The notes below the pieces were generated by a model that did no database searches, was not told where the DNA came from, and saw only the letters and a program-made list of their open reading frames with translations. This document shows positions 11,678 through 48,474 of a stretch of 64,000 nt of DNA, piece after piece. How positions within the stretch are numbered: position 1 is the first letter of the stretch; every line of letters begins with the position of its first letter. The stretch spans positions 17,908,213 through 17,972,212 of the forward strand of contig OZ234493.1 in NCBI GenBank assembly GCA_965153455.1, in the 5' to 3' direction. Origin of the DNA: Sphagnum compactum (taxonomy: Eukaryota). A program made the position numbers and the translations under genes.

Positions 11678-14038
11678 ATGGGTCCTCCTTCTCTTAAAGT
11701 TGCTGCGTTGGTTGCAGCAGGATTAGTGTTGGTTGTTGCCTTGGTTGTTGCCTTGCCTGTTGCTTTAGCTTTCAAGATGGTCAAATCAAGAAAGAAAAAA
11801 CAGGAGGGGAACGACAAGAACAAGTCCAAGACGAAGCCTACCGATGCAAACTGGGAATGGCCAATCTTCGATGAGTGGTATTCTCGTAATACATGGAGCT
11901 ATGAGCGGAAGCAAAGAGGAGGTGCAGAAGGTGACGATGAGAAGGACAGCAGCCCTTTTGAAGTGACATACAGGAGGCAGAAGGAGTTTCCTGACAAGAT
12001 GACGGTCACTCTCTTCTCCTCGCACCTTATTGCAGTCCTTGCCAAATGCTTGCCCAAGAACAACAAGGCGATGACCGACACGAACCCAAAGATTTCCGGA
12101 CAACAGCTTTTCTTGGCCATGGACACAATCCGTAACTACAAGATAGAAGAAGAATCTGAGAAAGACGCCGTCGCCACTGCAAAGAAGCTCGAGGAATCCG
12201 AGAACTCCACCACCACTACAAAGAAGCTCGCGGAATCCGAGAACTCAGCTTCCACTGCAAAGAAGAAGGTGGAGAAATCCAAGAAGTCTGCCGCCACTGC
12301 AAAGAAGCTTGAGAAATCTGAGAATGATGCCACCACTGCAAAGAAGCTCGAGGAATCTGAGAACTCTGTCGCCACTGCAAAGCTCCATGTAGGTCACTTG
12401 TTGCGGTTTCTGGAGAAGGAATATAAAGATACGCAAACGCAGTACGAGCGCATGACGAAGGAAGGCACTACTTCATGGGCGATGTTGTGGGCATTTCTAC
12501 CGCCGGGTGAGAAAGTGTACTATCATTGCAAATTCTCCGGCCAACAAGTGTGTGGCGTTGTTCGTTTGCGGCATTACTACAAGGACTACCAAACTGGTAC
12601 CAAGAGACTGTACGTGGAGCTCGACGTGATGGACTACAATGGTCAAAGCTACCGTGCTTGCAATGTTACCCGAGAAATTCTAGAGTTCCAAAACGAGCGT
12701 TCCTTTACTAATCTCAGCGTGTGTCCCTTGCGTTTCGCCAAACAAAGCGAGCAAATGGAAGCTGCATTTCTTGCCAATGGTAAGCGTTTCTACAAGTTGT
12801 CTGTGAAGGCGAATAGCTTCATGCAGTTCAAAGGACCACTTGTTCGTCTCGAGTACATCCCTGGCACCAATTGCAGTCACGTTGTCAAGCACAAGGCTGA
12901 TGGTAGAGTCATGATCGACCTCTGGAGCTTCGCTAGGATGAATCCCGGTTACGGTATGGAAAATGCCACTCCGCCAACTGCTTGTGATCTCATGTGTGGC
13001 TTGGAAGACTCCGACAATATGCCGGATGATGAAAGCTTGAAGCTTGCTCCTGCAATCGTCTATGGCTTCGCTTTCAGCATCAAGCAATGGGGATGCTTCC
13101 CAGTCACTGGTTTCAGTGAAATCTCGTTTGATGATCATGCTTTTGATCATCACCTAGTGATGAATGACAATGTTCAGAAAAAAATGCTGCTTGGCCTTGT
13201 CTCGCAGTATCTCCACGACCCACCAGAAGCTGAAAACAACAACAATGTCGCTGAAGTTGATGTTGTGCCATCCGTTGATCCCATTTCCAACAAGGGTGAA
13301 GGTTGCATCTTCCTGTGCTACGGGCCACCAGGAACTGGTAAGACTCTCACTGCCGAGTCTGTTGCCGAGAAGCTGCATCGTCCTCTTTGGGCTGTAAGTG
13401 CTTCGGAGCTGAGTTTCGAGGTCGACAAACTGGAACAAAAGCTAGCCCAAATCTTGGACATTGCATCCTCTTGGCGTGCGGTTCTTTTGCTAGATGAAGC
13501 AGACATCTACTTAGAGAAGCGCACTTCGGCCATCGATCCCAAACGCAACGCCATGACTGGCGTCTTCCTTCGTCTTCTAGAGTACTACAAAGGCGTCCTC
13601 TTCCTCACTACAAACCGCGTCACCACTTTCGACGACGCCTTCTGCTCACGAATCTCCATGTTCCTCCGCTACCATCGCCTGACGGATTCTCAAAGGGCCA
13701 AGATATGGGAGACCTTACTCTCGCGCGTTGGCCTCACTGATGTCAACTTGGAGATGTTCGCAACTCATGAGCTGAACGGCCGTGAGATCCGCAACACCAT
13801 CCGCACTGCTCACACATGGGCCACCAGTTGCAATCAGCCTCTAACCACACAGCATGTACTAAGCGTGGTCAAGATGCTGCACGACTTCCGCGAGGATTTG
13901 CAGGATGCCGCACTGGAGGAATCACAAGTCGACAATACCTTCTCATCGGTGCTAGCCACACTCCAGCAGCAACCACCTGCAATCCTCAACAACAACAAGA
14001 ACCTTTACTCAAATGGAGACATGAGTTTCAAACCCTAA
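11678..14038 (+). CDS. Membrane-anchored AAA+ ATPase, fungal-like DUF7025/AAA family, paralog 1 (786 aa, intronless)
   Basis: Long uninterrupted ORF. N-terminal hydrophobic segment (VAALVAAGLVLVVALVVALPVALAF). Walker A GPPGTGKT (13322-13345), Walker B VLLLDEAD, sensor-1 LTTNR, Arg-finger region DDAFCSRI, lid LNGREIRN. Confidence 0.92.
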   Translation: MGPPSLKVAALVAAGLVLVVALVVALPVALAFKMVKSRKKKQEGNDKNKSKTKPTDANWEWPIFDEWYSRNTWSYERKQRGGAEGDDEKDSSPFEVTYRRQKEFPDKMTVTLFSSHLIAVLAKCLPKNNKAMTDTNPKISGQQLFLAMDTIRNYKIEEESEKDAVATAKKLEESENSTTTTKKLAESENSASTAKKKVEKSKKSAATAKKLEKSENDATTAKKLEESENSVATAKLHVGHLLRFLEKEYKDTQTQYERMTKEGTTSWAMLWAFLPPGEKVYYHCKFSGQQVCGVVRLRHYYKDYQTGTKRLYVELDVMDYNGQSYRACNVTREILEFQNERSFTNLSVCPLRFAKQSEQMEAAFLANGKRFYKLSVKANSFMQFKGPLVRLEYIPGTNCSHVVKHKADGRVMIDLWSFARMNPGYGMENATPPTACDLMCGLEDSDNMPDDESLKLAPAIVYGFAFSIKQWGCFPVTGFSEISFDDHAFDHHLVMNDNVQKKMLLGLVSQYLHDPPEAENNNNVAEVDVVPSVDPISNKGEGCIFLCYGPPGTGKTLTAESVAEKLHRPLWAVSASELSFEVDKLEQKLAQILDIASSWRAVLLLDEADIYLEKRTSAIDPKRNAMTGVFLRLLEYYKGVLFLTTNRVTTFDDAFCSRISMFLRYHRLTDSQRAKIWETLLSRVGLTDVNLEMFATHELNGREIRNTIRTAHTWATSCNQPLTTQHVLSVVKMLHDFREDLQDAALEESQVDNTFSSVLATLQQQPPAILNNNKNLYSNGDMSFKP
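12173..12385 (+). repeat. Coding minisatellite: five 39-42 nt units encoding ATAKKLEESENSx
   Basis: Units start at 12173, 12212, 12251, 12293, 12332, with a partial unit at 12371. Confidence 0.9.
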
Positions 14039-14120
14039 AAGGGATCATGAGCTCCAAAGCCTAAAACTGATCTTGAGCTCCGAACCCTAAATTTGCATGC
14101 ACTCTAAACCCTAATTTTGT
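14020..14120 (+). repeat. Four degenerate ~25-nt units (atgagctccaaaccctaa-like) spanning the stop codon of paralog 1
   Basis: atgagtttcaaaccctaa / atgagctccaaagcctaa / ttgagctccgaaccctaa / atgcactctaaaccctaa. Confidence 0.75.
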
Positions 14121-17100
14121 AGCCTTAAAGGCAAGTTGCTTAATTAGACCTTAAACTTACACAACTCTAGTTAACTTGTTAAGTACACTTAATCTTGGAT
14201 TAGTGGCTTCTTATTAAAAATCACTGAATGCCAGGTATAAATTACCTTGGCAGCTTGGACCCTAATTATATTATTTTCAGAAATGCGGAAATTTGGAAAA
14301 CATTTTTTTTGTAAATGGCAATAGAGAATCTTTTTAGATATTTTGCTAATTTCCTAATTTTTGACATGGAATCTTTAAAATAAAATAATTATTCAAAATT
14401 GAAATATTGAATTTCCCTTCGTACTTATTACTAGAGGAGGTACTAAATAGGGCACTGGAATAAGCTTTAGCTCCAAACCCTAATTCTTTTAAGCTCATGA
14501 AAATGAGGATATTAATCTGAACAGGAGTTGACCCAACACTAGTTAAGTACACTTAATGCTAGTTAACCCCTAAAGGTCGGACAGGCCCAATATGGAGGAT
14601 TGCTTTTCAGTGTAAATTGGCACTGGCATGACATGTTTTCTTTTAAGGATTTTGTGATGTAGTCAAAGTGGCAATCATTCAGAAAATAATTTAGCCAAAT
14701 TTGGCGACATAATAGATAGAAAAAAAATGATAGAATTAACTTTTATATAGCTACATAATTGAATCCTTCCATATTCTTGTCCATATTCTTGGAACCTTTC
14801 TGGAACTTATCATAAGAATCCAGCAATTTGGAATTTTTTCTTAAAAAATCAAAATCTGGCAAATTTGGGCCATTTTTCACCAGATTAATGGCTTATCAGA
14901 AGTCATTAAAGAGTAGTACACCAGCAAATGTAATAGATTAACTGACCCAAAGCAGCCTTTTTCTCTACTGTTGAAACTTTGCTAAAAGCAAAATTCAAAA
15001 CTAAAATGCAAAAATGAGTTGATTTTTAGTGTAATCAAACACTAAAATTGGAAGAAAAATTAATGATAATGGCTAAATTCCTATATGTGGTTCTAGGTAG
15101 CCAGAAATATAGAAGGACATGTATTTTCATCCATTTAAAGTTACCTGCAAAGTACAACTATGGGTTTCCTTAAAATTGTGGACCTCAATCAAAATGCAAG
15201 AGCACGCAGCTCAAGGAAAATAAGCCAGCAGAAAACTCAATTTTTTTCCTCAACTCAATTTGATTTGAGTTTTTTTCTGTTTTCTGTGTTTTGTCCATGG
15301 CTACATATCTATTGAGGGACTTATTTTATGTTATGAGATATTTAAGGAAGACTTAGGGGATTACATAAAGTGTACCAATGGAATTAGGTAGGGATTTGCA
15401 GTTGAGATCTTAAAGATGATGGCTGCCAGGTCTTGCTGCTCTCACAGGCTCTTTGGAGCCTGAGTGGCGATGGTAGTGCTGGTACCAGCTTGGCTATTAG
15501 TATTGTCATTGTTTCTCTGTGCCCAGTAGTTCGCGCCATGTGAGAAGAGGAGAGAGAAAGTCAGGCAAAGAAAGATGAAGAGAAATAATTTGTACTTGGG
15601 GCACTCAAGGAAAAGGAAAGAGGGGTTCGAGGATTCATGTTCGATTTTAACTTTCGTTAGAAGCAGACTAGTTGTAAGTTTAGTTGTGGTTCAAATAGGA
15701 TTGGTTGTAAGTTTCATTTTTAGATTTTGGGGGCACGACGGAACATATAAGAAAAACCACTTTTCGAGACAAAGAAGGAAAATGATGATGACAACAACGT
15801 TAACAAGCAACCAAACAACAAAGGTGAAAAGGCAAAGGGAGGGTGGGGTTTGTTTAGTTTTTTTGTTTCTTTGGGTTTTGTTTCATGGTAGGTTCTTATT
15901 TTTCTCTTTATGCTTCTATCAAGCCTAGAAAGTTCTTTTATCACCAAGAATCTAGCTATTACTTACAAATTAAGCACAATAGAAGGTTTCTACCACAAAG
16001 TGAGCAATTTTGCCACGGGCTTGATTTTTCTTAATTTTTGTCATAGTTTTTAAAATATAACAAAGGAAAAAATAGAAATAAAAATTAAAAAATGTGTTGT
16101 AGCTGTGAGCATGTGAATACATAATGGCTAGTTATTGATCAATCGTATTTTTTTAAGGTTTTTTTTTTAGCAAAAGATTGAGTCAAGGGTGTTTTTCTAT
16201 TATTGAAGTTGAATGTTACTTTAATTGGGTAGTCCAAAAAATGAAAAAAGAAGTTTTTGAACCCCTAATCTTTGTACAATTGTTTTCAAAAGTGTATAGG
16301 TTGTGTTAAACACAATAAAGTAAAAATGATGGTGTCCAAAATTATGGCAAAGTTAGAATTCAACTATCTTTTGAAATAGAACTTGCTTATTTATGATGGT
16401 TTTTTTCTATTTTTTCTTTTAATGTGCTTAGTTTTGTGTGGTTGGTCTTGTAGGTTTAAGATTGCCAAGTTGAAATAAACATTTTTTAAAAAGTATGTCT
16501 TATTTGCAATTGTGCTTGTAATACCTTTTTCCTCATGGGCACAAAATGTCCCATGTCCCCAATTTATCATGTCTCATTGAACTTCGTAATTCACATCGCT
16601 CATTGTCTTTTCACACACCACCACAACCCCACTTTACACTACCTTTCCTATGTAAACCACGCACCACACACCAACCTCCCATACCATTTTAACAAACCAC
16701 CCACCACCCACTAGTTCCCCCTACCAACCCCTAGCCTTTGTGTAAATATGGAGCCCCAACACAACACTTTCACAATCCCCCTAAATAATGCACATGTAGG
16801 ACCTTCCCTTCCATTTTGTTAACCCCTGTAATTGTCCATGATTAGACCCCCAACCTACACCCACCCTCCCAACATGTTTACAACCTCCACCTAAAGATTT
16901 TTGTGCCACTTGTGAGCATCAATTTACTCTTTAAGGGTTAAGCCATCACCAACATTTTTGTCAAGCATCCAATCCATCTAATCTAAACCTACATGACCAT
17001 CCTGGCCCAATACCCTCCTTTACTCTCAACCCGCTTATATCAACATGGGCTTGGGTTTTGACATTAAATGTCTTTGGGGTCTTTCCATCTTGACTTTCAT

Positions 17101-17879
17101 CATATTCAACTATACAACTACATTCTGATTGCTTTATAATGTGATGTATAAGTGGCATTTTGTTTTTCACTTAATAAGTTGGCACATGTCCCCTATGATG
17201 TGACAGCTTGCCATTTGTTCTTTTTATTACCCTAGTGGTGTCTTATTTTGCCCCCTCGAAAGGAGGCCATTTGGCATAGGGAAATGAGGACTTGATTCAA
17301 ACATTTTCTAATAAACGATTAAGAAATCCTACAAGAGAAATTCTTTTTACAAGCCCAAACTTTAGGAGCAAGTTCGAGCTAAATGCCTCTTGCCCAACAT
17401 GATCTTCTAATTCATAAATGTTTTTTTCACAATTTAATTTTTGGATGTGCAAGAGAATACTCTCAAACAACACGCGTTTTGGCACCATTTTCTCTTGCAC
17501 CCACATCATGTAACATCACCTCAACTTTCATCAGTTTACATCCTAAATCAAATGGCTTTTTCCCGCTTTTTTTGGAAGATTACGAACTAGACCAAGACTT
17601 CGAACTTTCATATCATCCTTTCAAGCTAACATTCCAACGCATGTCAAATTTCTCTTCTTTAATTTAGTTATTTATTTAGTTCTTTCTTTCTTTCTTTATT
17701 TTCCCCAATTGGGTTTTTGCTTCTTATGTATGTCCTTTGGGTATTGATTATTTTTTGTTGGGCTATAACCCCCCGAACGGAATATCCCTATCATCATCTT
17801 AGGTTGAAAATAATCACAAACAATTCTCGAAACAAAAAATTTGCTCAGTCAATTGGGGAGTTTTTCTTTTGGGCAGACA

Positions 17880-18720
17880 AGGGTTTGTTGTTCCCATGAA
17901 GTTCCCAATGTCTTTTTCAAGATGTTTCCAATAGCATCACATTTTCATCCCATATGCTTTGCCCAAAATTTTCCCTTTTCACTTATATAATTGGGCCAAA
18001 TGGAAGGCACTATGTATATAGAATCTTCTATTGTGTGAGCTTCCAAAGTTCCAATTTTATTTTTATTTTTTTGTGATAGGTCAATGAAAATTATTCAACA
18101 CAACGGAAAAAAAAAAACTTGGGAAGCACCATCCATTCAATCAATTCAAAGATGAATATACGCCCATACTCCCATGTAGCCAATGGAAAGACTCAACATA
18201 GTGAGAAGAAGCTCTAGTTTTTTTCTTTTCAGTTGGGGGGGGGAGGGATTTTTTTTCATTTTTTTAACATTCCTAATGTGGTCCCCTAAAGTTCCCAATG
18301 TGTTGCCCACATGTTCCCAATAGCACCACACCCTATCCCCTATGCTCTACCCAAATTCTCCCCATTCTCACCTATATTGGTGGGCCAAGGGGGAGGCACT
18401 CCATTGTCCAATAGAAACTTATATTTTGGAGAGTCTTTAAGCATGTGTGTTCCCATAAGGTTCCCAAAGGCTTCCCAATAGCACCTCACTTTTATCCCAT
18501 AATGGTTTGCCCAAAGTTCAACTCTCATGTGTATAAACTGAAAAGGTGGGCCATAATGAGTGCATTTGTTTCTATTTTGCAACTGGTGGTCCAAAAAGGT
18601 GCTTTTATTGGGGAGTGCACAATGTTCCAAAGAAACTGGTGATGGGCCAATCAATACGGCCCCTTCAAAAAGAAATAAAATATGCAAGGGCACCCACGAA
18701 GTAATTAATAATATAAAGGG
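17880..18720. repeat. Cluster of 'gttcccaa...tagcacc..ttttatcccata' dispersed repeat copies (also 9150-9520 and 33850-34230)
   Basis: The same motif set recurs about three times locally and elsewhere in the window. Confidence 0.6.
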
Positions 18721-19284
18721 CCAAAAAGGGGTGTGTACAAGTACATGAAAAATCAGTTACACATAAAATATACGAAGGTGACAAATTAAAAAATTCAAGC
18801 TCCAAGCCAATCAGAGCTGAGACCGACAATGTCATGCTCCCCTTCAGAACTGGGGAGACCCCTCCTTGATAAAGGTCGCTGGAACCCTCTACACCAACCT
18901 GAAATCTTGTGATGGATGTAAACTTGAACAAAGTTCATTGCAAGAAAGTGCAACAAGAAGGAAGAACCAAATGGCTCGTTTCACAAAATGGAAGGATGGA
19001 AGTATGGCTCCTTTTGTTAGGAGTGAGCTGATGGTTTGTAGTTAGTACCCTCCACCCATTGTTTCTTTTAGCCCCCTCTTAACCTGCTTCATCACCAAGA
19101 AAATTGATTTCACTAGCCTACCATGATGGAATATGGATTTTCCTCTGACAGTATTTGTGTGTGATAATCATTGTGTTTAGCCTAGTTTGACACTAGGCTA
19201 ATGAAGAATATGTGCCACATTAGAGTATCATAAGCCATATGATCCAGAAATATATTTTGTTATAGTGTTTGATTTTAGGTCTAA

Positions 19285-19653
19285 AAGCATCTCTAATGGT
19301 GCTCAATATGTGACTCCAGAGAGTAAAATTTATTGTGAAAATGTCAAAATGTGCCGGTTTAGCTCAGGAAATTGGTTTTTCTGCACCAAATTCGTGAATC
19401 TGGCATGACTGGCGAAACGCGCAACACAGTTGTGCACCTCCAAAAAAGAGTGTAACAAATTGCACCTAACTGCAGCTCAGTATTTCTGATTGGTCGATCA
19501 TAATGATTGGTCAGGTGGTTTGCTATTAGTAGTCTCCATATATATGCAGTTACAGTTTTATTGGTAGGGTTGCCCAAAAACAAAAAGCTAAACTTAGACA
19601 TTTAATTTTATTATCCGAGTGACATACTGAGCACCGCACCGGTGGAGATGCTC
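19285..19653. mobile_element. PIF/Harbinger (Tourist-like) MITE, 369 bp
   Basis: Imperfect TIRs aagcatctct..ggtgctcaatatgtgactc / gagtgacatactgagcacc..ggagatgctc, flanked by TAA at 19282-19284 and 19654-19656. Confidence 0.8.
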
Positions 19654-20287
19654 TAAGGAGATTATTCCATAACCTTACTATTTACCACAACTGTTCAAAA
19701 TTGGTCTGAAATTTTTTATTTGGGTTGAAGGAAAAAGAAGTCTACTATCCTTAGATGCACAATAAAGAAGGTGCTTGATTAGAGAATCTGATTGCAAAAT
19801 GCAATTGATTAAAATAAAACCTACCCAGTGCAACCAGGTCTCCAGCTCTAATTCATAAATTGGTTCTCAGTTGAGGCCAAAATTGTCTCCCCCTATCCTA
19901 CACCAATGGGAAGTCTCTTGAGTGGAAATTTGCTAAACTTTACACTCCAAAAAAGCACTACGACACACACACACAACAAATGGAAGTGGAGCTAGTGAGG
20001 ACTTATTATTAAGGCTCATATGAATGAATGACTAGGAATTGGATGATTAATAAAGAAAGATCATTTGAAGAAACCAAATTTGAGTATCATATCAAAAGTG
20101 GGGAAGGGAAAGAAAAATTTCAACTACCGACGACAAATGAGAGATCAGAAATGGAAGAAGAGGACAGAATGGGAGATTGGAGGAGAAAGGACCATTAGAA
20201 GAGGAAAAAAACGCCAAATTTGAGTCACATATCAAAAACTTGGGGATGGGAGCCTAGCAAAATTCAACTACCGACGACCAATAAGAG

Positions 20288-20420
20288 ATCAGAAATGGAA
20301 GAAGATGTCAGAGTAGGAGTGGGTCCATAAGGACTGACATCAGAAATGGCAGAAGATGTCAGAGTTGGAGTGGGTCCGTAAGGACTGACATCAGAAATGG
20401 AAGAAGAGGTCAGAGTTAGA
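20288..20420. repeat. 51-bp tandem repeat (~2.6 copies) in a purine-rich tract
   Basis: atcagaaatgg.agaaga.gtcagagt starts at 20288, 20339 and 20390; the minus strand reads TLTSSSISDVSPYGPTP repeats. Confidence 0.85.
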
Positions 20421-21316
20421 GGAAAGGCATCAGAAGTGGGGATTGGAGGTGGGTCCATAACGGCTGGAAGTCAAGAGGTAAGAAGTGGGGATTGGAGCAG
20501 GTCCCTAAAAGGAAGGTAGAAGTCAAGACCTTCACCACAAGCCCAATAGACAAACGCCACCAAAAGATCCTCTAAATCTTATGAGGTTATTAAGCACAGC
20601 ATGGCTTGCTCATGTTCAACACTAATTTATTCTCAAGAGCAGTTTAATTCTGGAGAGGAATTAATTCTCAAGAGCACCGGTCTAAATTTTTTAAAAACTA
20701 AGAGCAATTTATCGAAATCTTAGAAAATCAAACCCAACTCAAAACACAAGATAACTTAGAAACTTACTAATGGACTTATCATACTTGAAAGACTATTGCT
20801 GAAATTCTGAAATGTTCAGATTGGGTCTGCCAGATCTCTTTTGTCAAAAAAAGTAAATTTTGCAACAAGATTTGCCATCTGATTCAACAGTCTGTTGTAC
20901 ATAAGTGTTTTTTTTCAATTATTTTTGCTGCTGCTGCATCATAAAAGTCAGGCACCCCAAAAATAATCTATCATTTCTTGGGGAAGGAGTTTGCTGCACT
21001 ACTTAAATTTACAAAATCACAGCAGCTTTGAAAATCACAGAAGATGATTGATCGATTAGTGCAATTTTTAACTGTTTTGTTTGCTGTTGTAGTATCATCA
21101 CAGTTTGTTTCATTTGTTGGGTCATCTTTCCTTTTCTTCTTTTGGGAGCCTTAGAGGTGATGGAACATTTTGTTTTGTTGTTGCAGTAGTTTTGATGGGA
21201 AGAGGAGTTGTGACGAAGCTGTTCTCTGAGTGAATCTTCGGTTGTGGTTTGTGGACAGTGTTGGGTTGAAGCTTGGGTGTTTTTTCTTCTCTTTTCTTTT
21301 TTTGGGTTGGGGTGAT

Positions 21317-23668: not shown

Positions 23669-24623
23669 ATTTTGTAACCCTAAAAGGAAGGTAATATAAC
23701 TAGACCAAACGTTTACCCAACTCAAGTTCATAAGTTTTAAATACACTTATTCTTGGATTAGTGGCTCATTAGAACACACTAAGTAGTAATACACAAGAAT
23801 AAGTTATATCTCAACCAGACCTTAGAGTGGTCTACCTCAAGTAAAAAGCGTCTAATGGTGTGGGGTTCCCAAATTTCATGAGCACCTTCATGGTCATGCT
23901 CACAGCAATACTTCTCAGTATTGAAGTACTCAATATTGCTCTTTGGATTTGCTAAAATAGGCATCCAAGCGTGTCTCTTTCCATTTCAAGTTGAAAGTGC
24001 ATAGATTGGAACTTTTGAAACATGAGGTGGTAATGCTCGAATTGTCTCCTTGTTGCACTGAGATCATCAAGAACTAGGGTTTTAAGATCCATGAAGACAG
24101 ATCATAGCTAAATTTTGCTCTGAACAGCCTCAAACACCAAGCTGCCCATTCCCAACCAATTCAACTTGATACCCATAATGCCAAACAATCTGAACCTAAT
24201 TAAGAGTTTGATTAACTTTGTTATCTTCTGCAACCAAAACACCATCGCACAAATGTTTTCCTTTGCTATGTTTACCTGGTTGTCTCGGGGTGTAGTTTTA
24301 TCCGATGAAACTCTAGGAGAAGTGGTACAACAATTGTCAATGTGGTTCCTTCACCAAGTTCATTTCCAATGGTAGTGTCCTGCCCTAACAAACCCTTGCA
24401 TTTTGTCAACTCTAACCCTCTTCCACATGCATCCCTTTCTTCTTGGTCGTGGATCTTGTGATGCCAATGTTCAACAAGGGGTGTGTCACACTGTGACCTT
24501 GCCATTTACATTAAAACGTATCTTAAGGAAGAAAGTACAATTATGGAAACTCAAATATTTCACCATGCAAAAATATAATCTTCAAAAAATCCTCTAAAAA
24601 AAACCCAAGTCCTGAAACATATT

Positions 24624-34900: not shown

Positions 34901-36104
34901 GAATAATAAGGGGGTTGTCATAGTACCTTTATCATTTTGGCAATGAACTGCCAAATAATTATTTCAATTTAAAATCTTACCTTCAGCACTTCAGCACCTG
35001 GTTTTTTAATATTCTGAAATTTTTGGTAGGTAATAATTATATAAAATAATAAATAGAATTTTATTAATGTTATGGAACAAGCTCGTGTATCTAGACTGTT
35101 TCAGTTCAACAGACAGTTGAACTTTTTAAGTTTATTAAAATTTCTACACAAATAATGAATAATTTTTCAAAAATTCGACAAAACAAAAAATAACTTAATT
35201 TATACCGAAATGGTAAAGTTACTACGATAGCTGTCCAATGTTGAGTCTTCTTCCCTAGCATCACTAGGGCAAACTAGGGCAAATTTTCATCCTTCATAGG
35301 GGGAGGCAAAGAAAAGAAATTCATTCTATTTCATCACATATTGTCTTGGATGAGGTTGTTAGTTGCCAAAACGCATCCAAGTCACTCATCCTCTTCGCTA
35401 GGATGAAGTGAGGTATAATGAACATGAGATCCATACCCTTGCCTCATTGCTCCTCAAACCCTACCCACCATCCCCACCAACAATTACAAAAAACATTATT
35501 GGTGCCATTTTGCACTCACACCATTGTTTCATTTGTCGACAGCTGATCTGCAAGTTTTTCACCAAATAGGTGTACCATGATGTTGTGTAGATTGCTAAAA
35601 TCCAATTCTAGGTGACTAGTTAGTTGTAACATTTGCAAGTTCAAGAAACAACATCCTACTTGTTGTTCTTGAAAGTTGAAATGGCCACTCCCAATTCAAG
35701 CTTTACTTGCTCGATTTATGACAAGATTTGTTACTCCCGCTCTTCCAAGTATGAAGTTGCTTGTCGAATTTTTTAATAAATGGATTTGTGCAAATTTAAT
35801 GGAATAGGTGTTTTTAATTTTGAAGAGATGCAAAGGAGAGAATTTTTATTCTAGAAACACAAAGTATGCATTTTTTAAGTTTTTAGTTTTCAGAATTTAT
35901 AGTTTTGTAGTGTTTTCTGAAGTTCAATATGGTCTTTGTGAGTTTTCTAGTTTTTAATTTGCTCTTTTAAGGTGATATGTTCTTTATGAGGTTTTATCAT
36001 TATTCATAGCTTGGGCATTCCATCATGTTTTCTTCAAATTTTTCAACATTTCAATTCGTTCAGAAACCCAAAGCCTTTGCACACAACCTTTGCACACAAC
36101 AATT

Positions 36105-39100: not shown

Positions 39101-41400
39101 AAGTTGAATGACATACATTAAATTATTAAAGATATTAAATATCAAAATAAATTTAGAATTCTCACATGTCCATTGATGATTTGTGAATAGATCATTGTCA
39201 CATCAACACATTGTTGCCTATGTAGTTACAACATAATGACATGATAGTTGTAATGCAACAACATATTATTACAACATAGTGATAAAGTAGTTGTAACATA
39301 GTGGTATAATAGTTGCAATGATGTAGTTGCAACATAATTGCATGAGTTGCATATGTATAATTTCATAGATGATGAATTGTGCTATTGCAACTTTTACAAC
39401 ACATCTGATGGCACTCAAGCTATAGAAATATGTTGAATTGCAAATGGTTGTGGCATGCAAATGGTTATTGTAAACTAAAATTACAACTAAAACCCAATTA
39501 CAAGCCTAGTTGCAAAACACCTATTTTTTCATAATGAAAATCTTTCATTTGTTTGGTAAATGGCAAAGGCATATATTGAATGGTTTTTAAAAGAACATTG
39601 TAGGTGGTTTATGATATGGAAAATTTGGAAACTTGAATGTGAATGTTCAAAATATTTGATTTGTTTAGTAAATGACAAAGGCATATATTGAAATTTAAAA
39701 AAAAACCTTATGGGTGGTTTGTGATGCAACAAATTTGAAAAGTTAAATGCAAAAGTTCAAAATATTTGATTTTTTTGGCAAATGGCAAATGAAAATCTTG
39801 GATGGTTTGAGATGTTTGTGATGTGGCATATTTGAAAAGTTCAATGCAAAATGTAATAAAATGAAATTCATGGTTTTGGGTTTTGTTCTTTTAAAAGTTG
39901 AAATCAATGAGTGTGCACACGATGATGACATTTTCCTATGCTTAAAGTTCATGATTTTTTTTCACGTTATAGAATGCTACAAAGAGTGGGCCCCTACTTG
40001 TCATATATTTATTAGTAATTACTTTGTTGGTTACATAAAGTCTTAACAATGTGGAGTCTAGATTAATTTTCAAAACCTCTCCTCTTCATTGCTACTAATA
40101 TGTAATGGTTTCAAGTTGTTACCACATTTGTATGTGTTTCTTTTGTTATGACCCCCTTCTGTGCATTTCCCATAGTGTCAACTTGGCATTCTATTTCACA
40201 ATTATAATACATGATGATTAATAATGAATAGTGAAATTGGTAGTAGCCACTTGATGATGAGAACATTACAACACTTTATTGCTTAATTTTATTTTTCTTT
40301 GAATGGTTTGTGAAATGGTAGTTATAAAAATTTGAATTTAGGATTATCAAAATCTTTGATTTGTTTAGTAAATGGTAGACACAAATTTTGAATGATTTCT
40401 AGTAAGTTTTTGTGAATGGTTTGTGATGTGGTAGATTTGGAAATTTAAATGTAAAGTGCATAAGTTTTTTAGATGTTTTGGTCCATGGTATAGGCAAAAT
40501 TGAAATCATTTTAATTCAACTATTATGAGTTGTTTGTGATGTGATGTGACAAATTTGGACATTGTAATGTAAAATCGGTCAGTTCTTTGAATTGTGTTGT
40601 CCACGGCACATTTAGAACTTGAAACCATTTAATTAATTTATTTTGGGTTATGATGTGGCAACTATAGAAATTGTAATGTAAAGGGGATTAATTGTTTAAA
40701 TAATTGTTGGAGGCCATGGCAAAAGGCCCATAAAAAGCTGGATACATTTGTGAATTTGGTTTGATTTGTTTATGATATGGTAGATGTAGGAATTTGAATG
40801 CAAAACCAACATCATGCTTGAATTATTTTTTTTATGGAAAATGTAAAAATTGTAATGTTTCTGTTGATTTTTTTCAAGTTTTTTGCTCAAGGGTAGAGGC
40901 AAATGCTCAAGATGATTTTATATTTTCTACTATATTTTTTTGGTTTGTTGTGATGTATCATTTTATTGGTAAGCTATTTGTGACATTCACTTGTTAATGG
41001 GGCTTGCATGTGTGTTGCCATTAGTGGAGACCATGCAATTTCTCTTGAAATTTGTTAAGAAGAGGGATACTTTCATTTGCAAGTTCATAGTCACAATGAA
41101 GGTCTACCAAGGTCAATTGTATACATTGTATTGTGACACCACCTTTTCCTTCCAAGGTGATGAATTCATGTCCTTTCATGGGTTGTCACAATAGGACCAT
41201 CAATAAATCCATAGGATGTGAATGATTGACTACAACACCATTTCCATTCAACATCTTGCATTTTTTTTAAATGATGAAGAAACATGGGTTCATTGGGGTG
41301 CAATTTACCTTAAAACAAGTACAATATGCTTCTTGTCACAAAAGCATCATTTGCACTCATCGTGGAGTTAATGAAATTTAAATGCAAATGTAAGTTCCTA
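36105..41400 (+). mobile_element. Degenerate hAT (ZNF862-like) transposase, split by a satellite-filled interval
   Basis: Fragments FHVLAHG*PMLEYETMYQLF (~36381), CVHAYVV..NNFIKMIMNAFMNCGG..KLLCFGVDG (36607-36837), KNVKTRWMSMLE (~37040) and CDIHLLMGLACVLPLVETMQFLLKF..RDTFIC (~40980-41190); multiple stops and frameshifts. Confidence 0.7.
37200..37800 (+). repeat. ~112-bp satellite, 6 units; further degenerate blocks at ~39540-39860 and ~40290-40960
   Basis: tttgtgatgtg anchor at 37202, 37314, 37426, 37537, 37650 and 37763. Confidence 0.85.
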
Positions 41401-42979
41401 ACCCCCTTAGAATTATATCATTTGTATTGTTTACAAATAAAATATAATGTTCATATGTTTGTGCTTGGATTATGACAAATCTCTTTACATGGTTTGAATG
41501 AATTTATTTTGTGTTGTTTTTTATTATGATGTGACATATTTCCCTTTGTTTTTCATTTTTTTAATCAAATTTGCCACATTGCAATAATGGAAAATTTTCT
41601 TCAAGTTATTATATCAAATGTTGTTATGTTTGTTGAATGGCAAAAGTAATGAACTTACAATTGCAAGATTAGATGTTATATCGCATCAAAGGTGTTACAT
41701 TGCAACAATGCAGCAACAATGATGCAAGGTGTTACATTGCAAGATTAGATGTGATATTATTAATAATTGTAAACTAATGAATTGGATTATCTCCTTTAAT
41801 GATCCAAACCTATCTACCAAATGGTGATTAGAGCAAATGTCTAACCAAATATGAGACACCAATAGCAATAAATTGGGTAATATGTATTGTATTTTTGATG
41901 AAATACAATTGTTTTATGTCTATGAAAGCTAGTAACATCAATAAATGTGCACAAGATGCAATGCTTGTGAAAAGCATTATAGGCCAAAATGATGATTTTT
42001 GATTGGTCAATTACAATCATTGTCTCGTATGGTTACATTTTAAAAGGTCTCTCATCTTATATTGTAGTAGCTTACCTTGACAACTTTGACACATGTTTGT
42101 CAAACAATTAATTAATTTTGAAATTTTCATTTGACAAATGATATATCCTCAAATATTTCATCAAATTCTTTATTTCCTTTAGAATTTGTTTTCCTGATTT
42201 TTTTGAAAATTTCAGCATTTTTGAAAATAATTTAATTAGTTTCAAATTGGCTTAGATACTAATTATTATCTCATTTTTCATGTTTATGAGTGAAGAATAA
42301 GAAAAAATTGACACACTACCTTAGATGTGATAAATAGTGTTGGAGGCCCAAATAGGGGTATGGGTAGAGTTGGTTAGGATCATTCTTTTTTTTTCAAATT
42401 TTGTAACATAATCACAATGAGAGCATTTCGAAACAAATATCAACGCCATTGGTGAGCTTTTTGTACATGACCATTAAAACAATATCCAATAAACATAACC
42501 ATGGCAACACTTTGCCCCAAAGAAGTTTTTGCAATTATGTTATGAAAAAAAAGAAAATTGTCCAAACTTTGGAATGAGTGTCACCTTTTGACAATTTTGC
42601 ATTAAGAAAACAAATGAATTTTGTATCTTGGAGTCGACATTCTATCAATTTATTTTTATCAAGTTATTTTTATCTAACATGTTTCTACTTAATGCACTTG
42701 ACTTTTTTGAACTGCGAGATACTTGAATGAAAGTTCGTTAAGTATTTCATCACACACAATGTTCACCCTAATTAGGTGAAAATAATATTTGCATGTGAGA
42801 TGTTCGCCTCCTGTCAAGAGTAATCGTAAAGTTTGTAACCATTGGTGTGATCTTAAGGTTGCGTGAAGAGTATGTTTTTATTCATCTTTATCCTTTCATT
42901 CTTCCATTGTCAATTTTCAACACACTAGACTTAGAGAAAGATAAATGTTAGTTTGAACATCATCGAAAATTTAAAAAAA

Positions 42980-43400
42980 GATTGATGGTTGGAACCATCA
43001 TAGGGGAGACAAAAGGAAAGGCCAAAAGACGCACAACCCACATGAACCAAAACAAAGGGAGAGAGCTAATCCCTCTTGTGGTAGGAAACTATCTCACCCA
43101 CGGCCCCTTTAATGTCGCCTGCATGCAAATCATAAGCTCTAATAGTAATGAGAGGTCTAAAACAAGCATAATTTGCCAACGCAATCTTCCTCTCTATGGC
43201 AAAGGTTAAAGCACGATGAAAAACAATATTAACATGTTATCTAAAAAATTGAATGCAAAAAGACAAGGATAAATGATCTCCCAATTGTTTGAACACCATC
43301 TCCTTCCTCAAGAAGCCAAAGCAAAACATAAGGCTACTTTACTTGTGACACTTCTAAGAGTCATAACCAATTACTCTTCATCAACCAATCACATTTTCAA
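42980..43400 (-). mobile_element. Degenerate 3' fragment of a probable retroelement ORF
   Basis: The minus strand reads AIERKIALANYACFRPLITIRAYDLHAGDIKGAVGEIVSYHKRD*, which resembles (from memory) a high-copy moss retroelement end; unverified. Confidence 0.35.
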
Positions 43401-46014
43401 GTGACTACAAAAACACACAATTGGTGTATTTTTATTTAAAGGGCAAGATTTTACCATCAATTGAGAAAAAGTTTGTAGAGAGCTGGCTAAACTGTTAGAA
43501 ACTACCCCAAAACTAAAAGGCCAGTTGAAATGTGGTGAGATTTTCCCCTAATTTGTTTCGCCGAGAATTCGGCAAAATTTTTCAGGGAATTTTGGAAACA
43601 TGTTTTTACAAAAAATTATAAGAGAAAAATTCTGCCAAAAAAAAGAAACAGTGATCAGGATCAGTGTTGGGTGGTCCTTTTACTTTCACGAAAAACCAAC
43701 CTTTGGTTCTGGTTTTGAAGATCAGATTCAGGTTAACCTCAGGTTAACCGTGGTTCTAGTCACTTTTTTGGGCCCTGCCGGAGGGACTATCACATTGGAT
43801 CCAACTTTTGGAAGTATTACCTTATTAAAATCAATTTCACATTAGGTGAACCAGTTTCTTTGGTGAAAGTGTTTACACTGTATAGATTGGAATGGATTTT
43901 TTTGGAGTGGACACAGTAGGTAGATGTACAACATCTTATCTATTGGCAGAGCCAGCGTGTTTGTGATGCCTTTTTTGTTTTCAAAAAACATGTATCTTGA
44001 TCCTAGGTTTTGGTTGCAGTTCCACATGTAAATCAAACTCTCAACTGAGTTTGTAGGTCCAATTCTTTAAAAAAAATTGATTAAAGTTTCAGCTCCAAAT
44101 ATCAGACTCAGTTCCGATTCAGTTCTTACTTGCCAAAACTAAAACCGACAATTCTTGACCACCAAAGCACATACCTACCCAACATTGGGTCTTTGTGTAA
44201 TGAATTACAATTCTTGACCACCAAAGCACATACCTACTTCCCGTAGGTTGGGTCTTGTTTAATGAATTACATGTTGCAAGGGGCTTGATGCCGCTACAGG
44301 GCAAGTGCCCGACAACAAGATATTTCCTGAAATGTTTTAACTTGTGAATCAACTCACACTGATTTTTAATTTTCCACATATATAACTAACTTACAAACCT
44401 TTACCGATGTCCAACATTTAGGTAAAGGCTATTTTCCACCATGAAATATATCGTACACAGGAAAAGGCTTAAATCTGGTGACCAAGTCTTGTTCTACATT
44501 TCAGTGTAATAAGCAGAAGACTTGAATCCAATTGGCCTCATGTGCAAGAGAGAAGTTGGGAACTCTTGTTCAAACGTGTAAACACATGCATTTATTTTTT
44601 ATGTATCAAGACTCGGTCATATTACCGATCGGAATCTGTCTTGCAAAAACCATGCCAAGGCATTGGGAAAAATGCAACATTGATTGGAACCTGCCTTGCA
44701 AAGACCACAAGGCATTTCAAAAATTGGAATCTCGATCCAAATGTGTCTTGCAAAAACCGTAAGGCAATTCAAAAAATGGACGGTGTGCTTGAAGGGGCAT
44801 TTTGTCTCTCGAAATGCCTCACCTCTTTTTTCATTTGTTTCTCGTGATACCTGGCAAATATCATGGGTATCCACCAGGTATCACAAGAGAAAATGGTTTT
44901 TTTTTTTTTTTGGTCGACACTTTATGCACAGTAATGCCCTTTGGGGTTTGGCGGGGGGGGGGGGGGGGTGTGTCTCTCAATAAGTGGCCCTTGGCTCTAG
45001 CACTTGTTTATTTTTGGAATCACTCACTCTGAAGGCATTTACCCTACACTTCTTGTGGGCGATCTTTGCATGGAAGCCCTCCATAATCAATTAGGAAATT
45101 TCCTTTACATATATTGAACCCTATAGTGTAATATAGGTGCATGAGGTACCATAGTCCCCCAATAGATTTGGCAAACATATGTGGAATGATTAATATATTT
45201 TTCAAAAATTTAGCTTCAGCACTAGATTCTTGACCTTGAACATTTCAGCATAAATAATATTATTAACAAGACAAACCTCTTTGTAACAAGTGTGCTGGTA
45301 CTGTCTCAGTGTGTTTAGACCGAGTTTTCATTTCAGTACTTGAACCCATTGGCCCCAATATATAGATTAAATTTTACTAATTTTTGGCACTTTGTTTAAT
45401 TAAAGTTTCAAGAATTGATAATTTTGAAAATGATTTTTTTGATTGCCAAACCTGTTCAGGGATCATACCGTAGTATGGAGAATCAATATTACTCCATCAA
45501 GTTGCCTTGAACGAGTTAGTCCTAATCACTGTTGTGTAGTTCTTGATTTCAAAAGGAACCTTCCATCCTTCAGTTTTTCAATGGCACTTATTTGTAATCT
45601 CAGACAACAGCAGCTTGCTTGAATCACACGCCTCATGTGACTTCCATTTATAGCTAAGCTGGTAGTGTGTGTTCCTCCATCTGCTTATAAAATCTGCAGA
45701 TGCAGTAGCTGCTGCAGCTTCATGAGTTTCCTTCAGTAGTGTTTTGTTCAACTGTTTGTTGTTGCTGTTACAATCAACTAAGTTTGTTTGTTTTTTTTTT
45801 TTTGTTGTTGATGCTTTTAATTCTGCAATCAGTTTCCAAGTTTTGGTTTTTGATTTTTTCCAGAATTTGGTCGTTTGGTTGTTGTGGCAATCAGCTTCAA
45901 AGATTTCAGGTTCTGTTTTTTGAGAGCTGTCCAATATAGGCCTAGTTGGAACTTGGGGGGGATTTTGTAGACAAGCAGCATACTAGCTTGGTTTCAGCTT
46001 GAGTTTTTGCTGGG

Positions 46015-48474
46015 ATGGATCCTCAGCTTGCGGTTGCAGCTTTGGTTGCAGCGTTGGTTGCAATCGTGTTGAACGTTGCTGTGTTGTTTGCTGCTCTAGC
46101 TTTGAAGACGATTCTATCTAGTAGGAAAACAACAGCTGTGGAGAAGAAGCTTGAGTCTGACGAACCCAAGCCGACTGAGTCCGAGCCCAGGCCGTCTGAA
46201 TCCGAGCCCAAGCCGACTGAGGACAAGCCCAAGCCCAAGTCGACTGACGCAGACTGGGAATGGCCAATCTTCGATGAGTACCAATCTCGTGTAACGTGGG
46301 GGTTTGAGCGCAAGCAAAGAGGTGCAGAAGATGAGAATCAGAAGAACAAGGACAACCCATTTGAAGTAACCTACAGGAGGCAGAAGAATTGGCCTGAAGA
46401 GATGTTCGTCACTCTGTTTTCCTCGCACCTTGTTGAAATCATCACCAAATGTTTGCCCAACAATAAGCACATGACTGAATCTACCCCACGGATTTCAGGA
46501 AAAGAGCTTTTCTTGGCCATGGACACAATCCGCAACTACAAGATAGAGGAGAAATCCGAGACTGCGGTGGCCACTGCAAAGCTCGAAGAATCCGAGAAAA
46601 ATGCCACTGCCACCGGCGCAGAGAAGCTCGAGGAATCCGAGAAGTCCGCTACCACTGCAACGAAGCTCGAGGAATCCGAGAACTCTGCTGCCACTGCAAA
46701 GAAGCTCGAGGAGCCAGAGAACTCCGCCACCATTGCAAAGCTCTATGTAGACCACTTGTTGCGGTTTCTGGAGAAGGAATTTAAAGACACAAAAGTCCAG
46801 TACGAGCGCATGAAGCAAGAAGGCAACACCTCGTGGGCGATGTTGTGGGCATTTCTACCGCCGGGCGAGAAAGTGTACTATCATTGCCAATTATCTGGTC
46901 AACAATTGTGTGGGATTGTTCATTTCCGGCATTACGCCCAATTGCCAGACGGCAAGGCACTCTTGCTGGAGCTCGACGTGATGGACTACAACGGCCGGAG
47001 CTACCGTGCTTGCAAGGTCATGCGACAAATTGGAGAGTTCCAAGTTGAGCGCTCCTTTGATTCTCTCGGCGTTTGTCCCTTGCGTTTTGCGAAGCAACGT
47101 GAGCGAATGGAAGCTGCATTTCTTGCAAATGGTAAGCGCTTCTACGAGTTGTCTGTGAAGGCGAATAACTTCATGCATTATGAAGGGCCAGTCCTTCGTC
47201 TTGAGTTCATCCCTGGCACCAGTTGCCGTCGCGTTGCCAAGCACAACGCTGATGGCAGAGTCATGATCGACATATGGAGCTTTGCTCGGATGAATCCCGA
47301 TTACGAAATGGGAAATGCCAATCCGCCAACTGCTTGTGATCTCATGTGTGACTTGCAAGACTCCGACAGTCTGCCGGATTACGAAATGGGAATTCCCAAT
47401 TCGCCAACTGCTTGTGATCTCATGTGTGACTTGCAAGTCTCCGACAATCTGCCGGATGACGAAAGCTTAATGCTTGCTCCTGCAATCGTCTATGGCTTCG
47501 CTTTCAGCATCAAGCAATGGGGATGCTTTGCAGTCACGGGTTTCAGTGAAATCTCGTTTGATGATCATGCTTTTGATCGCCACCTAGTGATGAGTGACGA
47601 GGTCCAGAAAAAAATGCTGCTTTGCCTTGTCTCGCAGTATCTCCACGACCCACCAGAAGCTGAAAACGTGGGGAGAAACAACAACGCAAAGGCTGTCGTT
47701 GTGCCATCGATCGATCCCATTTCCAACAAGGGCGAGGGCTGCATCTTCTTGTGCTACGGCCCCCCAGGAACCGGTAAGACTCTTACTGCCGAGTCTGTTG
47801 CCGAGAAGCTGCATCGCCCTCTTTGGGCTGTAAGTGCTTCGGAGCTGAGCTTCGAGGTCGACCAACTGGAACAAAAGCTAGTCCAAATCTTGGAAATTGC
47901 ATCTTCTTGGCGTGCGGTTCTCTTGTTGGATGAAGCAGACATCTACTTAGAGAAGCGCGCTTCGGCCGGTGATCCGAAACGCAACGCCATGACTGGCATC
48001 TTCCTTCGTCTTCTGGAATACTACAAAGGCGTCCTCTTCCTCACCACAAACCGTGTCGACACTTTTGATGACGCCTTCTGCTCAAGAATCTCCATGTTCA
48101 TCCGCTACCATCGCCTAACACATTCCCACAGGGCCAAGATATGGGAGACCTTACTATCTCGTGTTGGTGTCACTGATGTCAATTTGGACATGTTCGCAGT
48201 TCATGAGCTGAACGGCCGCGAGATCCGCAACACCATCCGCACTGCTCATACATGGGCCACCAGTTCCAAGCAGCCATTAACCGCACAGCATATACTAAGC
48301 GTGGTGAAGATGCTCCACGACTTCCGCGAGGATCTGCAAGACGCTGTACTAGAAGAATCACAAGTCGACCATCCCTTCTCGTCGGAGCCAGCCACACTCC
48401 AGCAACAGCAACCTGCAATCCTCAGCAACGGCAACAACCCTGCCTCAAATGGGGACATGAGCTCCAAACCCTAA
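46015..48474 (+). CDS. Membrane-anchored AAA+ ATPase, paralog 3 (819 aa, intronless)
   Basis: Long ORF. Hydrophobic N-terminus (LAVAALVAALVAIVLNVAVLFAALAL), Walker A at 47758-47781, Walker B VLLLDEAD, LTTNR, SRI. Closest to paralog 1. Confidence 0.92.
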   Translation: MDPQLAVAALVAALVAIVLNVAVLFAALALKTILSSRKTTAVEKKLESDEPKPTESEPRPSESEPKPTEDKPKPKSTDADWEWPIFDEYQSRVTWGFERKQRGAEDENQKNKDNPFEVTYRRQKNWPEEMFVTLFSSHLVEIITKCLPNNKHMTESTPRISGKELFLAMDTIRNYKIEEKSETAVATAKLEESEKNATATGAEKLEESEKSATTATKLEESENSAATAKKLEEPENSATIAKLYVDHLLRFLEKEFKDTKVQYERMKQEGNTSWAMLWAFLPPGEKVYYHCQLSGQQLCGIVHFRHYAQLPDGKALLLELDVMDYNGRSYRACKVMRQIGEFQVERSFDSLGVCPLRFAKQRERMEAAFLANGKRFYELSVKANNFMHYEGPVLRLEFIPGTSCRRVAKHNADGRVMIDIWSFARMNPDYEMGNANPPTACDLMCDLQDSDSLPDYEMGIPNSPTACDLMCDLQVSDNLPDDESLMLAPAIVYGFAFSIKQWGCFAVTGFSEISFDDHAFDRHLVMSDEVQKKMLLCLVSQYLHDPPEAENVGRNNNAKAVVVPSIDPISNKGEGCIFLCYGPPGTGKTLTAESVAEKLHRPLWAVSASELSFEVDQLEQKLVQILEIASSWRAVLLLDEADIYLEKRASAGDPKRNAMTGIFLRLLEYYKGVLFLTTNRVDTFDDAFCSRISMFIRYHRLTHSHRAKIWETLLSRVGVTDVNLDMFAVHELNGREIRNTIRTAHTWATSSKQPLTAQHILSVVKMLHDFREDLQDAVLEESQVDHPFSSEPATLQQQQPAILSNGNNPASNGDMSSKP

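Follow-up and report, generated by a model that had tools for sequence, protein, structure and literature searches.

A 64,000-nucleotide stretch of the Sphagnum compactum genome (assembly GCA_965153455.1, contig OZ234493.1, positions 17,908,213 to 17,972,212 of the forward strand; below, the window, within which all positions are counted) was analyzed for a cluster of three paralogous genes that encode putative membrane-anchored ATPases of the AAA+ class. An original prediction, made without database searches, described the cluster as intronless, fungal in type, acquired horizontally and amplified locally. The whole 64-kb window was scanned for open reading frames (ORFs) of at least 250 amino acids (aa) with ATG starts and the standard code. 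Exactly three were found, all on the plus strand: gene 1 at 11678-14038 (786 aa), gene 2 at 21317-23668 (783 aa) and gene 3 at 46015-48474 (819 aa), and the coordinates, lengths and strand previously given for them proved exact. Gene 3 is the nearest paralogue of gene 1 (aa identity 77%), followed by gene 2 (65%), which has the same architecture with a shorter hydrophobic N-terminus. The guanine-plus-cytosine (GC) content of the three coding sequences (0.48-0.51) is higher than that of the whole window (0.36), as had been predicted for their flanks, and than that of an exon of the neighbouring saposin-like gene (0.41). High GC content as a signal of foreign origin was considered and rejected as uninformative, since coding sequences are usually GC-richer.

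According to the Pfam analysis, the DUF7025 domain (PF22942) scores 72.9, 58.0 and 60.7 bits in genes 1-3 (gathering cut-off 27), and the AAA domain (PF00004), located C-terminal to it in all three genes, scores 66.5-72.8 bits (cut-off 21.2). The predicted succession of DUF7025, AAA and lid is thereby confirmed for its first two members; the fungal AAA+ lid (AAA_lid_13, PF23232) stays just under its cut-off of 27 with 20.0-24.5 bits and a partial match to the profile. A helical lid is seen at aa 670-763 in the predicted model of the gene 1 protein. The sequence motifs quoted in the original prediction are present, with gene 2 deviating from them in reading LEVMDYNG and HFLRFLEKE. Maxima of 19-residue Kyte-Doolittle plots (3.09, 2.27 and 2.89 in genes 1-3, at residues 4-8) and an AlphaFold helix in gene 1 agree with the hydrophobic N-terminal anchor foreseen earlier, and the anchor of gene 2 is shorter and weaker than the other two.

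The full-length model of the gene 1 protein (predicted local distance difference test, pLDDT, 85.8; predicted template modelling score, pTM, 0.80) begins with a predicted transmembrane (TM) helix (aa 6-33) and a disordered Lys/Arg-rich tether that extends to about aa 60. These are followed by a beta-rich N-domain (aa 61-176), a disordered repeat linker (aa 177-216; pLDDT <50 at aa 180-215), a long helix (aa 217-262), beta domains that include DUF7025 and continue beyond it (aa 279-475; DUF7025 with the beta region may also be delimited as aa 256-475), and the AAA alpha/beta and lid domains (aa 540-765). The linker of gene 1 is encoded by a tandem repeat of a 39-bp (13-aa) unit found by the Tandem Repeats Finder (TRF) program at 12174-12382 on the plus strand (5.3 copies); a 39-bp linker repeat is also present in gene 3 (46618-46740, plus strand, 3.2 copies), and TRF detected none in gene 2. 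In addition, gene 3 contains an in-frame 78-bp tandem duplication in a loop of the middle region (47299-47464, plus strand, 2.1 copies with 93% matches), which appears as an insertion in the alignment.

Structural comparison of the AAA part in the Foldseek program gave proteasomal Rpt subunits, Msp1/ATAD1 and Ycf2-FtsHi motor chains as the best matches (E about 1e-12). The sequence search of the PDB matched only the generic AAA module of VAT, Cdc48/p97, Msp1 and Vps4, and no solved structure of a DUF7025-AAA protein was among the PDB matches. A separate model of residues 55-501 (pLDDT 90) found no Foldseek match at E <=1e-3. The best VIA-align result for the N-domain and DUF7025 (Z 5.8, Tudor/SH3-like small barrels, aa ~262-355) is too weak to name the fold.

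Genes 1 and 2 are transcribed as unspliced mRNAs. Raw reads of one stranded polyA run from a moss were mapped to positions 9000-25000, a region with genes 1 and 2 only; 1377 of the 1488 mapped reads were at least 99% alike. Coverage was continuous over gene 1 (depth 15-47, ~10.95-14.3 kb) and gene 2 (depth 6-32, ~20.9-23.95 kb), lay almost wholly in the orientation that in most stranded libraries denotes plus-strand RNA and was close to zero in the flanks of both genes; no splice joints were listed inside either gene in this run. The unspliced, polyadenylated transcript of gene 1 occupies approximately 10948-14320 on the plus strand, with untranslated regions of ~730 nt at the 5' end and ~280 nt at the 3' end; its limits correspond to a read end at 10948 and to a fall of depth to 2 by 14319. 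Partial contigs at 95-99% were also obtained from three metatranscriptome runs. The predicted lack of introns is thus confirmed by RNA reads for genes 1 and 2, and for gene 3 it is read from an uninterrupted frame colinear with gene 1.

The ratio dN/dS (Nei-Gojobori method) was 0.31-0.34 for all three gene pairs and 0.26-0.29 for the conserved core, and dS was 0.43 between genes 1 and 3 and 0.72 and 0.79 for the other pairs. Judged by these values, the three genes are old duplicates under purifying selection. Each of them has its own counterpart with 95-98% identity in other Sphagnum-type records. Of the checks proposed with the original prediction, those of expression and selection showed genes 1 and 2 to be transcribed and dN/dS not to be near 1.

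The local history of the cluster was analyzed using self-blastn. An inverted duplication was found, with the left arm at 5263-17000, containing gene 1, and the right arm at 30056-45570; gene 2 lies between the arms. The paired segments are 5263-6638 and 45570-44207, 6650-6960 and 36408-36105, 7327-11088 and 36075-32473, and 14623-17000 and 32472-30056, with identity of 87-93%. A 3534-bp segment with gene 1 (11089-14622) is exactly missing from the inverted copy. The corresponding junction, 32472/32473, shows only ~2 bp of microhomology and neither a target-site duplication nor polyA. Since the arms are ~7-13% diverged, compared with dS of 0.43 between genes 1 and 3, loss of the duplicated copy seems a simpler explanation of the gene-less site than late insertion; for the latter to have followed the duplication, a source copy diverged by less than ~12% would be required, and the window contains no such copy. 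The origin of gene 1 as a retrogene or transposon was considered separately and rejected, because there is no target-site duplication beyond ~2 bp and no polyA tail, and the transcript starts ~140 bp outside the 3534-bp segment. The right arm is split by a 7.8-kb insert carrying a 113-bp satellite; AT-rich satellite units of ~110-113 bp are located in this insert at 37201-37801, 39537-39808 and ~40294-40682.

A relic of a fourth copy, corresponding only to the lid region (aa ~654-742), was detected on the minus strand at 51916-52170 (tblastn E 5e-7, aa identity 30-35%; blastn identity to genes 2 and 3 of 67-69%). With its three intact genes, the relic and a duplicate site from which the gene is exactly missing, the cluster is a product of birth-and-death evolution, and the window offers a small, readable case of this process. 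The three paralogues clustered in it bear out the local expansion that had been proposed. Family members also lie close together elsewhere, as indicated by neighbouring locus tags in Riccia fluitans (002403/002405 and 016536/016545), R. sorocarpa (008294/008297 and 005481/005488/005531) and Ceratodon (5G107300/5G107500); shared contigs are represented by four consecutive accessions of Gigaspora margarita and three genes of Glomus cerebriforme.

The distribution of the family was assessed using several searches. When 1.84 billion representatives were scanned exhaustively and without a profile, 22,970 matches were obtained at E <=1e-3 and 2,581 at E <=1e-30. Three cluster look-ups returned 30 proteins, 19 of them with an organism name. 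Eight named proteins belong to the plant clade described below (Ceratodon purpureus, Riccia fluitans, R. sorocarpa, Calypogeia fissa, Adiantum capillus-veneris and A. nelumboides), six belong to its sister clade and are all from Glomeromycotina (Rhizophagus, two from Gigaspora, Cetraspora, Funneliformis and Racocetra), and five lie further out (Blastocladiella, Phenoliferia and Atractiella of the Pucciniomycotina, Wilcoxina and Fusarium). Further named homologues were found in Sphagnum balticum, S. jensenii, S. magellanicum, Ceratodon and the lycophyte Diphasiastrum complanatum. When the part of a Riccia member outside the AAA domain was used as the query, 193 proteins were found at E <=1e-10 among 2436 candidates. 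Among the best 120 of the 193, Marchantia polymorpha (two genes), M. paleacea and Ceratopteris richardii were new; in rows 1-54 the names are those of plants or are missing, and Glomeromycotina names (among them G. rosea, R. clarus, R. diaphanus, Dentiscutata and Glomus cerebriforme) begin at row 55. Thermoascus is the sole other organism named in these 120; seed plants, hornworts, algae and Physcomitrium are not named among them, many rows having no organism label. Streptophyte algae and other Archaeplastida are likewise not named in the 120 rows or the 30 look-up proteins, many of which are unlabelled. A word-index search with a 19-sequence alignment returned 30 proteins, mostly known ones, with no new plant groups and Scutellospora (Glomeromycotina) as the only new name.

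The plant homologues are located on contigs of 14-207 Mb, those of Sphagnum on contigs of 17-22 Mb. PolyA transcripts, duplicated flanks of host type and the location of homologues on such large contigs together show that the genes are truly integrated in the host genome, and contamination is ruled out. The aa identity of the plant proteins with those of the sister Glomeromycotina is 40-44%, as against 29-37% with those of other fungi. A WxWP motif that opens the N-domain was found in 19 of 21 named plant sequences and five of seven Glomeromycotina sister sequences, compared with none of the six from other fungi. The N-terminal part of the family is variable in length. The Ceratodon purpureus protein P0035 (1213 aa) has an N-terminal protein kinase fusion, and seven of the eight long forms scanned (P0038, P0040, P0041, P0046, P0054, P0061 and P0066; 1134-1311 aa) have N-terminal extensions of 500-700 aa with no Pfam match, some of which carry hydrophobic segments.

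Two phage proteins are related to the family. The protein V1VFAS_022 of Rhizobium phage V1VFA-S (L001, 628-2406, 593 aa) contains a weak DUF7025 match (4e-4), an AAA domain, a weak AAA_lid_13 match and the family motifs, and shows 43-44% identity with the C-terminal 300 aa of a Fusarium member. The g083 protein of Bacillus phage AR9 (L002, 643-2286; PHROG 29662) is an AAA relative; PHROG 29662 matches gene 1 at 3e-30, in the AAA module only. Neither protein has a TM anchor or a WxWP N-domain, and in the tree both lie apart from the groups of fungi and plants. A cluster of the Atlas with 60% viral members agrees with the membership of phages in the family. The designation of the family as fungal in type does not hold strictly, the Rhizobium phage protein having the same architecture.

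A maximum-likelihood (ML) tree was constructed in the IQ-TREE program under the LG+C20+F+G4 model with posterior mean site frequencies (PMSF), using 60 sequences and 602 columns; the tree is unrooted. The 25 plant sequences formed one clade (support 100/99), and nine Glomeromycotina sequences formed another (100/100), sister to the plants (joint support 100/100, stem 0.63). The quick tree of the first 58-row data set agrees with this tree. In a FastTree phylogeny of 170 sequences, a 65-row clade (support 100, stem 0.57) consisted of a 58-row group with the window genes and a 7-row group. Four more Glomeromycotina paralogues sit elsewhere in the tree; joining both sets costs 109 log-likelihood units and gives p 6e-53 in the approximately unbiased (AU) test, for a group named after the tree had been seen. 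A quick tree of 40 sequences, including the two phage relatives, was rooted on the Bacillus phage protein. The unnamed group with the Rhizobium phage protein branched first, then the second Glomeromycotina set, and Blastocladiella, Basidiomycota and Ascomycota formed the sister (98 in the Shimodaira-Hasegawa-like approximate likelihood ratio test, SH-aLRT) of the plant and Glomeromycotina pair (100). With the phage outgroup, this pair is nested among fungi with SH-aLRT values of 98 and 96, on a long outgroup branch, and the root placement is tentative. The look-ups, the searches and the ML tree agree that the nearest non-plant relatives are fungal, as the original prediction had expected.

The above data make it probable that the window contains a functional birth-and-death cluster of the DUF7025-AAA family, with genes 1 and 2 expressed, that its products are anchored AAA+ remodellers and that the plant branch of the family descends from one ancient transfer from the Glomeromycotina lineage to land plants. 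The plant branch would be old, predating the split of mosses, liverworts, lycophytes and ferns. The gene would have entered the land-plant stem once, from a fungus on the Glomeromycotina (arbuscular mycorrhizal) lineage, and its subsequent history would have included duplication, loss and a remodelling of the N-terminal part, in which different members were given a TM anchor, a fused kinase or long extensions. The direction and date of the transfer are inferred, a single transfer from Glomeromycotina to the plant stem being the most economical reading of the sequences. The original proposal of horizontal acquisition followed by local expansion is thus upheld as regards the expansion and the fungal kinship, and the event is neither recent nor specific to mosses. 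The donor, which the proposal left out, can be narrowed to the Glomeromycotina lineage. The findings named in advance as fatal to that proposal (orthologues following the species tree across streptophyte algae and land plants, best hits to ordinary plant AAA families, silent genes with dN/dS near 1, a chimeric assembly) were none of them obtained outright, algal orthologues having been looked for among sequences that largely have no taxon label.

Several observations weigh against this reading. Most relatives have no organism label (in the first tree, 41 of the 58 plant-clade sequences), and members from streptophyte algae, hornworts and seed plants may be among them. The root is set by a single phage branch of great length (5.37) in a quick tree, and the other phage protein falls inside the unnamed group. 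The plant part of the tree departs from the species tree and contains at least three old lineages. The lycophyte protein P0015 (Diphasiastrum complanatum, 75.6-Mb contig) is placed together with those of Sphagnum rather than outside the mosses (100/98), and the monophyly of mosses is rejected by the AU test (p 0.006, post hoc); this suggests the involvement of old, hidden paralogy or of further, plant-to-plant transfers. Finally, the plants and the Glomeromycotina clade are reciprocal sisters, neither being inside the other.

This last relation would also fit a transfer in the opposite direction, in which early land plants were the first of the two to possess the family, by origin or by acquisition, and served as the hosts from which the ancestor of Glomeromycotina obtained it. 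The retention of a separate, more typical fungal set of paralogues in Glomeromycotina is consistent with such a course, and plant-to-Rhizophagus transfers of other genes have been reported (PMC5982333). Nevertheless, Ascomycota, Basidiomycota and Blastocladiomycota contribute many members to the wider family, and the phage-rooted tree nests the plant and Glomeromycotina pair among fungi; the plants would have needed a fungal donor of their own first, that is, two transfers instead of one. Nor is the DUF7025-AAA family listed in the main text of PMC5982333. A transfer from plants to fungi is therefore considered unlikely.

Still less probable is a history without any transfer, with vertical inheritance of an ancient eukaryotic paralogue that survived only in non-seed land plants and in Glomeromycotina. 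The unrooted tree permits a root on the stem of the plant and Glomeromycotina clade, many relatives are unlabelled, and two EukProt transcriptome proteins belong to the family. However, outgroup rooting puts the root off that stem, and the gene would have to have been lost from every other fungus, from animals and from those algae and seed plants that public proteomes name. In addition, the best 120 of the 193 proteins name only non-seed plants, Glomeromycotina and one ascomycete, and the higher identity of the plant proteins with their fungal sisters than with other fungi is at odds with vertical descent. As for the recent, moss-specific acquisition originally proposed, or a contaminant or chimeric assembly, it is highly improbable in spite of the intronless genes with GC content above the surroundings: liverwort, lycophyte and fern homologues share one plant clade (100/99), the dS of the paralogues is 0.43-0.79, polyA transcripts at least 99% identical come from a moss RNA run, the Sphagnum homologues lie on 17-22 Mb contigs, and the flanks are common to the inverted duplicate within the same window.

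The Walker A lysine K555, the Walker B residues D606 and E607, the sensor-1 asparagine N646, and R658 and R702 are present in all three Sphagnum genes. Among 118 aligned family members, the Walker A lysine is conserved in all 118, the aspartate and the glutamate of Walker B in 116 each, the sensor-1 asparagine in 116, Arg 658 in 116 and the sensor-2 arginine in 114. From their alignment position to VAT/Cdc48 and from general knowledge, we take R658 to be the arginine finger and R702 to have the sensor-2 role. Since every catalytic residue is kept, the AAA+ module should be hydrolysis-competent, and ATP hydrolysis is expected.

The mode of action may be envisaged as follows. A single N-terminal signal-anchor helix with the Lys/Arg-rich tether would fix the protein to a membrane, leaving its bulk in the cytosol; the orientation is suggested by the basic stretch after the hydrophobic helix. 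The compact N-domain and a small beta-barrel module (DUF7025) would stand in front of one AAA+ module of the classical clade and may recognize partner proteins. By analogy with the AAA+ class, the protein would assemble into a ring and carry out ATP-driven remodelling or extraction of its partners at the membrane, canonical threading being doubtful with the degenerate pore loop. Topology and action are understood here from the positive-inside rule and from the way in which classical AAA+ proteins generally behave, so that the topology, oligomeric state and substrate of DUF7025-AAA proteins are inferred by analogy.

Three features speak against such a mechanism. First, pore loop 1 reads SFEV in genes 1 and 3 and TLKV in gene 2 where VAT has KYYG/KWVG, and the corresponding family column contains T 60, V 16, I 8, S 6 and F 5 of 118; the aromatic-hydrophobic-glycine motif of classical AAA+ proteins was not found there. 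Because pore loop 1 is devoid of this motif, substrate handling is probably other than canonical threading. Second, the N-terminal domains have no confident match to any solved fold. Third, the TM anchor was found in six of 21 named plant sequences (Sphagnum, one Ceratodon gene and one Calypogeia gene), in none of the seven sister-clade sequences and in one basidiomycete, and by this count membrane tethering is a lineage feature, not a family-wide one.

The protein might alternatively serve as a nucleotide-dependent switch or scaffold, for example in stress or immune signalling, with the variable N-terminus (TM helix, kinase or long extensions) as an output module. The missing aromatic residue of pore loop 1 in most members, the exchange of N-termini between lineages for a protein kinase or long extensions and the tandem birth-and-death pattern are compatible with this, as are weak AAA-level matches of the PADLOC program to the defence ATPases IetA (1e-11) and TRIP13 (3e-9). 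At the same time, the residues for hydrolysis are all conserved, as in working motors, and the PADLOC matches are confined to the generic AAA module and are far from membership in these families. A switch or scaffold thus appears rather unlikely, with an appreciable share of the probability. Since both the PADLOC and the PHROG matches concern the AAA module only, a defence label would be unjustified, and a role in defence or recognition is speculative, as it was in the original prediction.

Compared with known systems, the Sphagnum proteins are closest to the uncharacterised fungal proteins composed of DUF7025 (PF22942), AAA (PF00004) and AAA_lid_13 (PF23232), with which they have in common the domain order, the catalytic residues and the motifs ADGRVMID, YGF.F..K.WG, DEAD followed by an aromatic residue and LE.R, and RNAM.G.F. 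In contrast to these proteins, the plant and Glomeromycotina branch has its own N-domain beginning with WxWP, and the Sphagnum trio additionally has the N-terminal TM helix and a repeat linker, with a lid match under the Pfam cut-off. Msp1/ATAD1 proteins, N-anchored extractors of mislocalised membrane proteins, have a single N-terminal TM helix, as predicted for the Sphagnum proteins, and likewise one AAA module of the classical clade, which in the Sphagnum proteins would face the cytosol. Their structural matches reach E ~5e-12; the sequence match is confined to the generic AAA module (aa 542-709, E 9e-8 to 4e-7), and in the full-length PDB sequence search VAT/Cdc48/p97 chains outscore Msp1. 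Unlike the Sphagnum proteins, Msp1 has neither DUF7025 nor the N-domain. The aromatic motif of pore loop 1, essential in Msp1, is absent from the Sphagnum proteins. The likeness to Msp1/ATAD1 would therefore be one of functional analogy only, and not of membership.

Previously, ancient fungus-to-land-plant transfers have been described for the bryophyte macro2 gene, from Mucoromycota (PMC7181705), and for the FB-lectin gene (PMC12513842). As far as excerpts of these papers go, the event type is the same, a fungal-type bryophyte gene being nearest to fungi allied with early plant symbionts, whereas the DUF7025-AAA genes represent another family with a wider plant range (lycophyte and ferns), a sister group of Glomeromycotina only and multigene birth-and-death evolution. 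An ancient fungus-to-plant transfer is thus a known kind of event, and the protein has a known, uncharacterised Pfam architecture. In the full-text literature, no paper naming DUF7025, PF22942, PF23232, IPR054289, IPR056599, PTHR46411, AAA_lid_13 or the Marchantia gene identifiers was found. Searches for ATPase and AAA in the main texts of papers on horizontal transfer or gene families in plants or fungi gave nothing relevant in PMC3493653, PMC12448838, PMC12890914, PMC12513842 and PMC13069868, and in PMC5982333 no more than a bacterial-type ATPase of another kind; their supplementary tables may list the family.

Should the tree stand once all taxa are labelled, the family would offer a clear case, involving several genes, of genetic exchange that linked early land plants with the fungal line of their oldest symbionts. 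Selection would have kept these genes in four major groups of non-seed plants, with seed plants apparently lacking them. In its fullest form, this account would see a trace of the founding plant-mycorrhiza association: one gene taken from a fungus of the Glomeromycotina line ~450-500 million years ago, giving rise in spore-bearing plants to a fast-turning, re-tailored family that was lost in seed plants and that encodes a membrane-associated AAA+ remodeller of a new type with a non-threading pore. We hold this fuller account as possible rather than probable. To our knowledge, mosses are not mycorrhizal, and the retained function is therefore probably one of general cell biology or defence, not symbiosis itself. 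The data also point to an abundant, uncharacterised AAA+ family across fungi, plants and phages, of which the two Marchantia polymorpha genes are suited to plant genetics.

As for the rest of the window, the segment 24470-25000 had a very high depth (300-400) and numerous loose read ends in the three metatranscriptome runs, and raw reads skip 143 bp there. It may be an expressed repeat or a spliced gene; the ORF 24643-24915 (plus strand) within it has no Pfam match. Rfam and tRNA scans of the window gave no match. A Pfam search with 30 other ORFs of the window matched only two pieces of the saposin-like neighbour gene, which occupies 60567-62274 on the minus strand. The SapB pieces, 60567-60863 and 61858-62274, are more than 1 kb apart, and their Pfam matches (SapB_2 at 5.6e-10; SapB_1 and SapB_2) fit a split gene.

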